Below are positions 2,698-2,967 of a DNA stretch of 6,348 bases, piece after piece (within the stretch, counting starts at the first letter, position 1; every line of letters begins with the position of its first letter). This stretch comes from a virus (taxonomy: Duplodnaviria > Heunggongvirae > Uroviricota > Caudoviricetes). Where the stretch lies: IMG/VR virus record IMGVR_UViG_2531839033_000016; one strand, written 5' to 3'. The notes under the pieces were generated by a model, which worked only from the letters and a program-made list of their open reading frames with translations, did not search any database and was not told the DNA's origin. The position numbers and the translations under genes are program-made.

Positions 2698-2967
2698 ATG
2701 AATATTTTGAGAAAGCTTATGCAGAGTCTGTGCGGTTGCGGAAAGCATGATGACTGTGAAAACGGACGGTCACTTACAGCACAATTGCGACTGGGACCGG
2801 CAGACATTCTGGAGTCAGATGAGAATGGCATTATTCCGGAGCAGGACAGGGTAATCACACAGGTGGTGATACTGGATGCAGATAAAAAGCAGATACAGTG
2901 CGTGGTAAGACCGCTGCAAATCCTGCGTGCTGACGGGACGTGGGAAAATATTGGCGGGATGAAGTAA
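2698..2967 (+). CDS. Hypothetical 89-aa protein, translationally coupled to stf; function unknown
   Basis: ATG 2698 lies 1 nt after the stf stop, with GGAG at 2688-2691 inside the stf 3' end. The protein (MNILRKLMQSLCGCGKHDDCENGR…) has no family I recognise. It is followed by a terminator. The ORF track extends this frame upstream to 2566, which I consider non-coding overlap. Confidence 0.55.
   Translation: MNILRKLMQSLCGCGKHDDCENGRSLTAQLRLGPADILESDENGIIPEQDRVITQVVILDADKKQIQCVVRPLQILRADGTWENIGGMK

Follow-up and report, generated by a model that had tools for sequence, protein, structure and literature searches.

The stretch of DNA analyzed in this work (the window, 6,348 nucleotides) is part of a lambdoid prophage of the CP-933K/Sp3 type from E. 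coli O157:H7. Behind the 3' end of J and lom it carries stf, the gene of a collagen-like side tail fibre, followed at once by a small ORF and then by the genes of the type III effectors NleB2 and NleC, a remnant of tfa and, as the last gene in the window, the start of nleH1 (Table 1). The EPclA architecture of the fibre has been described previously (PMC3368898); in its gene, a GTG at position 1374 constitutes an alternative start. The tfa remnant is situated between nleC and nleH1, outside the tail-fibre transcription unit, and is listed as a pseudogene in RefSeq. Its match to the C-terminal part of the Caudo_TAP profile bears out the degraded downstream tfa gene that had been noted in an earlier reading of the window made without database searches (the sequence-only reading).

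Several minor elements were seen in addition. RefSeq annotates a ykgJ-like pseudogene on the minus strand close to the tfa remnant (approximately 5288-5401). Directly 3' of the small ORF it lists a 'hypothetical protein, incomplete' pseudogene (2969-3076, plus strand) that spans the terminator; a Pfam search with this pseudogene gave no match, and the database proteins P0005 and P0011 correspond to the small ORF read through into the same stretch. Opposite to stf and the small ORF, two long ORFs are found on the minus strand, 2073-2981 (302 amino acids) and 1561-2364 (267 amino acids). These are taken to be by-products of the stop-poor collagen-repeat sequence, the signal of selection being found in plus-strand frames only. 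An Rfam scan of the whole window matched no family.

Table 1. Genes and sequence elements of the window.
Feature	Positions	Strand	Remarks and basis
J, 3' end	9-650
lom	721-1320
stf, collagen-like side tail fibre of the EPclA type	1380-2696	+	PfN, coiled coil, collagen repeats, PfC knob; Pfam matches phage_tail_N, Collagen and Phage_fiber_C; RefSeq CDS in the near-identical locus L001
PfC domain of the fibre, C-terminal trimerising knob	2469-2660	+	residues 366-429 of the 440-amino-acid translation; Pfam PF06820, E 1.1e-33
Shine-Dalgarno GGAG of the small ORF	2688-2691	+	within the last stf codons, 6 nt before the ATG
Coupling junction TGA-C-ATG	2694-2700	+	stf stop 2694-2696, one base C 2697, small-ORF ATG 2698
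Small ORF, stand-alone PfC-domain protein of 89 amino acids	2698-2967	+	sequence, Pfam, PHROG, RefSeq, selection; homologue peptides in the phi24B virion proteome
N-terminal segment of the small protein, residues 1-27	2698-2778	+	amphipathic helix ~3-12, CxC motif 12-14, linker ~15-26
PfC domain of the small protein, residues 28-89	2779-2964	+	Pfam PF06820; predicted all beta
Intrinsic terminator closing the tail-fibre transcription unit	2982-3012	+	hairpin AAAACCGGAGU-CCG-GCUCCGGUUUU, then U run
nleB2, type III effector	3144-4124
nleC, type III effector	4158-5177
tfa remnant, lambda-type, C-terminal third only	5680-5835	+	Pfam Caudo_TAP profile positions 80-125 of 131, E 5.8e-16
nleH1, start only	3' of the tfa remnant

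Start codon, junction with stf and terminator

Eighty related loci were taken from IMG/VR, and the 74 usable copies of the region were aligned. From its ATG, the small ORF of the window runs over 89 codons to a TAA stop (2965-2967). The junction with stf (GGAGAATGACATG), which includes the GGAG motif and the TGA-C-ATG arrangement, does not vary in the 74 copies, and the stop of the small ORF, either TAA or TAG, falls on the same codon in all of them. No RNA structure masking the start of the small ORF was detected at the junction (z +0.83).

In older annotations, the small ORF had been called from ATG codons further upstream, resulting in proteins of 102 or 129 amino acids. These starts were rejected, as they lack a Shine-Dalgarno sequence and as the Salmonella homologue begins at the equivalent methionine, with a stop codon two codons before it. 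Moreover, the stored part of the phi24B proteome contains no peptides from the upstream extensions. The supported form of the small protein is the one of 89 amino acids.

The 11-bp hairpin of the terminator begins fourteen bases past the stop of the small ORF. Its predicted fold has a free energy of -21.3 kcal/mol (z = -4.0), which none of 200 shuffled sequences equalled. The hairpin is kept in related loci, and the similarity between these loci stops 50-80 nt past it. A scan with a terminator consensus did not list the hairpin at 2982-3012, probably because its stem can be prolonged into the U run. The sequence-only reading had described the same anatomy, that is the ORF, the gap of one nucleotide, the Shine-Dalgarno sequence embedded in the 3' end of stf and a terminator of its own, and all of these elements are present in the sequence. 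The invariant arrangement of Shine-Dalgarno sequence, stop and ATG together with the conserved terminator also speaks for the co-expression with the tail fibre proposed there, and the small ORF does occupy the place where fibre accessory genes usually sit.

Coding status and selection

The small ORF is intact in 74 of 74 usable copies, which comprise 50 distinct nucleotide alleles. Conservation at related loci, which the sequence-only reading had named as a check on the ORF, was thus found without a single break. The pN/pS ratio amounts to 0.15 for the whole ORF and to 0.059 for residues 28-89 (pS 0.13), while the out-of-frame controls on the same DNA gave ratios of 4.9 and 2.1. The synonymous diversity of the small ORF (pS 0.13-0.22) matches the level of stf and its non-synonymous diversity is low. 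A finer scan along the ORF gave pN/pS values of 0.07 for codons 1-9, 0.21 for codons 10-18, 0.88 for codons 19-25 and 0.03-0.12 for the rest. The small ORF is a real coding gene, more than a chance ORF, and its product consists of two constrained parts, the N-terminal helix and the PfC domain, joined by a freely evolving linker. The PfC domain of the fibre is less constrained than that of the small protein (pN/pS 0.25 versus 0.059).

Domain identity of the small protein

The C-terminal domain of the small protein matches the Pfam family PF06820 (Phage_fiber_C, here PfC) over the complete profile (positions 1-64 of 64) with 123.3 bits against a cut-off of 25 (E 5.1e-36). At full length, the protein matches PHROG 576 ('tail fiber protein'; residues 1-89 on profile positions 1-89 of 89, E 2e-60), and its name in RefSeq is 'phage tail fiber C-terminal domain-containing protein'. 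The profile search suggested in the sequence-only reading thus returned a clear PfC domain, and the statement made there that no family could be recognised has to be abandoned: two thirds of the protein consist of this domain. Its other statement, that the protein is not like Tfa, was right, since neither in Pfam nor in NCBIfam was there a match to Caudo_TAP or a chaperone family. The element is already annotated and already discussed in the literature; it is not an unassigned family. PF06820 is described as the C-terminus of long (collagen-like) fibres, from which the small protein departs in that it has only 89 amino acids, is free-standing and has its own start. Free-standing small PfC proteins are still filed under the PF06820 domain by Pfam and RefSeq. 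The PfC domains of the small protein and of the upstream fibre are 35% identical at the protein level (E 4e-12) and 55% identical at the DNA level.

Besides PfC, no Pfam family was matched at E values up to 1, and NCBIfam gave no match for the small protein. Likewise, the PADLOC defence models matched neither the E. coli nor the Salmonella small proteins at E values up to 1. A sequence search against solved structures yielded a chance match only (E 0.81). Structure prediction for the protein alone, also suggested in the sequence-only reading, did produce a model: AF2 predicts a helix at residues 3-12 and an all-beta PfC domain. This model has low confidence (pLDDT 65-66, falling below 50 for residues 14-24) and gave no fold match.

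The cysteine-rich N-terminus, which the sequence-only reading had put forward as a feature of the protein, is not conserved. At the position of the third cysteine (Cys20), C, R or S is found, and the Salmonella variants have one or no N-terminal cysteine. A metal-binding cysteine cluster was rejected on these grounds. A signal peptide or lipoprotein leader was rejected as well: the maximal hydropathy of the N-terminus over seven residues is 0.5-1.0, only 13 residues precede Cys14, the would-be hydrophobic core contains charged residues, and the cysteine is missing in the Salmonella variants.

Homologues and distribution

The same gene is known from other phages as 933W L0122, Sp5 ORF68, VT1-Sakai H0003, phi24B 'gp59' and AU5Stx1 atfT; Sp5 is an Stx2 phage of E. 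coli O157:H7 Sakai. These homologues are 91-99% identical to the protein of the window, have 89 amino acids, and are encoded directly after a collagen-like fibre gene. In a GenBank record, the homologue carries the name 'atfT, alternate tail fiber tip', and the window protein, in a longer call, is recorded as 'unknown protein encoded by prophage CP-933K'. The exact protein of the window is on record from at least 1000 contigs. Of 5426 complete E. coli genomes, 698 contain the region, and the median copy number per genome is 12.

Outside this range, hardly any relatives were found. A filter-free HMMER search of 1.84 billion representative proteins gave 79 hits, nearly all of them fragmentary or mis-framed forms of these same enterobacterial genes, and there was no large distant family among them. 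The family of the small protein is very narrow. A scan of genome representatives found it only in E. albertii and in a contig that is likely a contaminant. In an assembly of Xanthomonas pisi, a contig of 725 bp (L084, NZ_JPLE01000138.1) codes for a small protein that is 99% identical to the one of the E. coli prophages; this contig is almost certainly a contamination of that assembly. A literature search with the locus tags brought up nothing relevant, and the papers on C. rodentium and on clinical EHEC phages do not mention the small protein.

The only clearly distant relative found is P0156 (565 amino acids), a collagen-repeat protein with four tandem PfC-like domains upstream of its collagen region. 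These domains share the motif VVVLDAD...GILxVRRADGTWxEIP and align with the whole of PfC. This protein shows that PfC-like domains can stack along one chain or fibre.

The fibre gene and the small gene as a pair

In the phage collection, the small protein was found in 296 records at an identity of at least 80%, and the fibre-type PfC domain was likewise found in 296 records at this threshold. The small gene and a fibre ending in PfC co-occur in all 296 records that have either of them, with an identical split by organism name. The pair is found in lambda-like siphoviral as well as in 933W-like podoviral contexts.

A second, diverged version of the pair is present in Salmonella enterica. There, a non-collagen fibre of 212 amino acids ending in PfC is followed by a small PfC protein of 79 amino acids. 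The small gene overlaps the fibre gene by 14 nt, is equipped with a GGAGG of its own and is followed by a terminator. This pair closes a baseplate-wedge tail module with Dit-like, sheath-initiator-like and wedge-like genes (L086-L089, e.g. CP079839.1). NleG- and SopA-like effector genes lie directly 3' of it in these loci, so that a link between the module and downstream effector cargo is seen in two genera. Between E. coli and Salmonella, the small proteins are 62% and the fibre knobs 44% identical, and all cross comparisons between small proteins and knobs give 34-36%. As identity within each class exceeds that between the classes, the duplication predates the split of the two lineages and both copies have been kept next to each other.

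Traces of rearrangement were also observed at related loci. In L043 (4030-4215), a second, partial copy of the 3' end of the small ORF, together with the terminator, is found some 780 bp 3' of the intact gene. With 85% identity and a frame-breaking deletion of 7 nt, this copy is decayed; the decayed copy is also present in L044, L050, L052, L053 and L062. The gene between the two copies encodes a protein of 176 amino acids that was judged by eye, without a family search, to be an NleG-type effector. This placement of effector cargo between direct repeats of the module suggests that the end of the ORF and the terminator serve as a recombination junction for cargo exchange. Apart from this, a few rare variants, each confined to a single cluster, affect the two PfC domains themselves. 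In P0121 and P0122, frameshift mutations join the fibre PfC to the small ORF, P0123 is a chimera of the N-terminus of the small ORF with the fibre PfC, and in P0063 (4 sequences) a deletion joins the collagen repeats to the PfC of the small ORF. These variants could be real rearrangements or sequencing errors.

Published experiments and virion proteome

Ghosh et al. (2012) found that the EPclA fibre, the type encoded in the window, is a trimer, and that the PfC domain, when isolated, acts as a trimerisation module and nucleates the refolding of the collagen helix (PMC3368898). The small protein was absent from this work on the fibre and PfC, and in E. coli BL21 the recombinant fibre forms trimers on its own. 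They also reported that collagen-like fibre genes are absent from E. coli K-12 (PMC3368898). Mondal et al. constructed in-frame deletions of Sp5 genes in a K-12 lysogen and found the fibre gene ORF67 to be essential, with ORF68 counted among the non-essential late genes (PMC5155283). As K-12 lacks such fibre genes, it is unlikely that other copies supplied the function of ORF68 in this host. The same authors found no frameshift signal and suggested that ORF68 is a 'reservoir' for fibre variation (PMC5155283).

A cryo-EM preprint on phi24B (10.64898/2026.04.10.717836) does not discuss gp59 in its text and places the role of the collagen-like fibres among its open questions. In the accompanying proteome file, two peptides of the small protein, ADGTWENIGGMK and VITQVVILDADKK, are present in the virion preparation. 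Thus, the small protein is translated. Each of the two peptides is represented by 3 spectra, compared with 47 spectra for the C-terminal peptide of the fibre and 2267 for the whole fibre. The small protein is present in purified virions as a trace, on a par with proteins that the phi24B authors treat as contaminants; a signal at this level speaks neither for nor against binding. The data do show that the small protein is not a stoichiometric virion component. The phi24B authors also looked for fusions and included a test entry labelled 'Spike or just gp59?' (10.64898/2026.04.10.717836). Only in a gel band of low molecular weight does the count for this entry surpass that of the fibre (25 versus 24).

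Discussion

Overall, the results leave hardly any doubt that the small ORF is a conserved late phage gene, here in its CP-933K/Sp3 copy, whose 89-residue product consists of helix, linker and PfC domain and has no signal peptide, that this PfC domain and the trimerising end-knob of the fibre are paralogues of long standing, and that the gene is transcribed together with stf, translated from its own Shine-Dalgarno sequence and followed by the terminator that ends the unit. What is added here to the existing annotation is the evidence of selection, the age and portability of the pair of fibre and partner, the resolved start codon and the proteomic trace.

With regard to its role, we tentatively favour, at somewhat short of even confidence, the view that the small protein is a non-essential partner of the distal knob of the fibre, acting as an assembly aid or as a cap. 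The small protein would form a trimeric knob of its own, as the fibre PfC does, and this trimer may contact the distal PfC knob of a newly made fibre, like with like. It would be a dispensable helper that either aids assembly or, as a cap, stops the knobs from sticking together, made in step with the fibre and mostly absent from the finished virion. This reading is based on the PfC paralogy, the selection on the ORF, its coupled expression and confirmed translation, the strict pairing with the fibre gene, the occurrence of the pair in varied tail contexts and the decay of the second 3'-end copy, as well as on the self-trimerisation of PfC (PMC3368898) and the tandem stacking in P0156. The low spectral counts relative to the fibre fit a helper rather than a stoichiometric part of the virion. 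As the recombinant fibre and the isolated PfC domain trimerise alone and ORF68 is non-essential on K-12, any help that it provides under laboratory conditions is small.

Of the two roles considered in the sequence-only reading, an assembly factor and a receptor-binding accessory, both remain the leading ideas, and only the variant of an essential Tfa-like chaperone is contradicted by the viable Sp5 deletion on K-12. Such an obligatory chaperone of the Tfa/gp38 type, without which the fibre could not fold, would suit a gene placed downstream of stf in a prophage that has lost its lambda-type tfa. The small protein resembles neither Caudo_TAP nor any other chaperone family, however, the recombinant fibre trimerises alone in BL21, and Sp5, in a host that has no other copies, needs its fibre gene but can do without ORF68. 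The obligatory chaperone is largely refuted by this deletion, and we consider it barely credible. A receptor-binding accessory is more probable than this chaperone. In this case, a trimer of the small protein would stay non-covalently on some fibre ends as a distal tip and alter or supply receptor binding, with an effect on natural hosts and none on K-12. The gene directly follows that of the fibre and invariably accompanies it, peptides of its product can be detected in purified virions, its GenBank name denotes a fibre tip, and its dispensability is known from rough K-12 only. The abundance far below that of the fibre (3 spectra per peptide versus 47) argues against it, as does the report of the phi24B preprint, which describes no extra density or protein at the tip of the lateral fibre. 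Receptor-binding tips are usually the most variable part, whereas here the fibre knob varies more than the PfC domain of the small protein (pN/pS 0.25 versus 0.06). We regard the accessory tip as rather unlikely.

Two further explanations would dispense with the fibre as the site of action or with the protein altogether, and both appear improbable to us. According to the proposal of Mondal et al. (PMC5155283), the small ORF would be a spare C-terminal cassette that can replace the fibre knob, with no stand-alone protein function, and the existence of the rare natural chimeras P0063 (4 sequences) and P0123 speaks for it. A silent cassette would not need an invariant Shine-Dalgarno sequence, ATG and stop nor a conserved N-terminal helix, and the protein is translated. 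Furthermore, with 55% nucleotide identity the two PfC copies are a poor substrate for homologous exchange, fibres with the ORF-type knob are very rare among hundreds of clusters, and the two PfC lineages have been distinct since before the Escherichia and Salmonella versions split. Alternatively, the small protein might function away from the fibre, for example as a soluble knob that is freed at lysis and, as a decoy or blocker, binds debris or receptors on the cell surface, or in the lysogen. That the domain is so strongly conserved between serotypes and genera suggests that its partner is conserved as well, and the absence of a laboratory infection phenotype and of stoichiometric amounts in virions would be in line with a role elsewhere. 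Nothing connects the small protein with receptor blocking, though; it has no leader of the signal peptide or lipobox type (maximal seven-residue hydropathy 0.5-1.0) and matches no defence-system model, and the fibre is the partner indicated by the strict linkage and coupling of the two genes. A last explanation concerns the way of expression: a programmed +1 frameshift or another kind of recoding at the end of stf could yield a longer fibre with two tandem knobs. The small ORF is read in the +1 frame with respect to stf, and in 73 of 74 copies this frame stays open over 46 codons further upstream; older calls of 102 and 129 amino acids exist, and the phi24B authors searched for fusions with the entry 'Spike or just gp59?'. 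Chance alone would, however, produce an open stretch of 46 codons in about one of nine cases, and that entry exceeded the fibre count in the low-molecular-weight band only (25 versus 24). Neither an X_XXY_YYZ heptamer nor a homopolymer run occurs at positions 2560-2697, the -1 frame is interrupted by many stops, and we infer that GAA-UGA-C re-pairs poorly for a +1 slip. Likewise, Mondal et al. found no frameshift signal (PMC5155283), and in Salmonella the frame of the small ORF has a stop two codons before the ATG. Peptides across the junction of fibre and small protein (TGEDMNILK and WAVIQAEQENDMNILK) or from the upstream frame are absent from the stored part of the phi24B proteome. Recoding is thus very improbable.

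Returning to the favoured role as a partner of the fibre knob, its most far-reaching form would be that a free paralogue of a trimerising end-knob, always co-translated with the fibre, acts in trans on this knob. We give this proposition a small chance only. If it were true, the small protein would represent a new kind of fibre accessory that works through homotypic contact, as a template, a cap or a detachable second knob, and not through an unrelated chaperone fold. The same two-gene module, found in three tail architectures and two genera, would then be a portable unit of fibre end plus partner. Collagen-like fibres are carried by Shiga-toxin phages and by effector-carrying prophages of EHEC, EPEC, E. 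albertii, C. rodentium and some Salmonella. A constrained and expressed partner gene that always travels with the knob would be a cheap handle on the question of what the end-knob binds, and what is learned from the small gene could help studies of how the fibre assembles and how stx and effector genes spread.

Comparison with known systems

The closest relatives are Sp5 ORF68, 933W L0122 and the other members of this group, which represent the same gene. They differ in context, as they reside in podoviral Stx phages and not in a lambda-like siphoviral prophage as in the window, and in the allele of the variable linker. The PfC domain of the EPclA and EPclB fibres (PMC3368898) belongs to the same domain family, with a match over the full profile of 64 positions. 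While the fibre PfC trimerises and nucleates the collagen helix, the small protein is only 35% identical to it, is free-standing, has its own N-terminal helix and forms a separate, older lineage. From lipoprotein receptor blockers of the T5 Llp and phi80 Cor type, which are encoded beside fibre genes, the small protein differs in that it has no signal peptide with hydrophobic core and no lipobox.

A second, diverged copy of a fibre 3' end just downstream of the first is also a property of the invertible S/U segments of Mu and P1 and of diversity-generating retroelements. In contrast to these systems, no invertase, inverted repeats or reverse transcriptase were noted in the window, and the downstream copy has its own start and is translated separately. 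A VR/TR pair of a diversity-generating retroelement was considered for the two PfC copies and rejected, given their nucleotide identity of 55% with mixed mismatches and no adenine-specific pattern; no reverse transcriptase was found among the window proteins scanned.

The assembly proteins lambda Tfa, T4 gp38 and their counterparts of Mu and P2 (Caudo_TAP, PF02413) are likewise encoded by a small, co-expressed gene directly after the fibre gene. The small gene of the window shares this placement by virtue of the one-nucleotide gap, the Shine-Dalgarno sequence inside stf and the shared terminator, and it takes the place of the tfa gene that is left as a remnant. There is no sequence similarity between the small protein and these chaperones, which are needed for their fibres, whereas Sp5 ORF68 is dispensable. 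Unlike the chaperones, the small protein is homologous to the fibre's own end.
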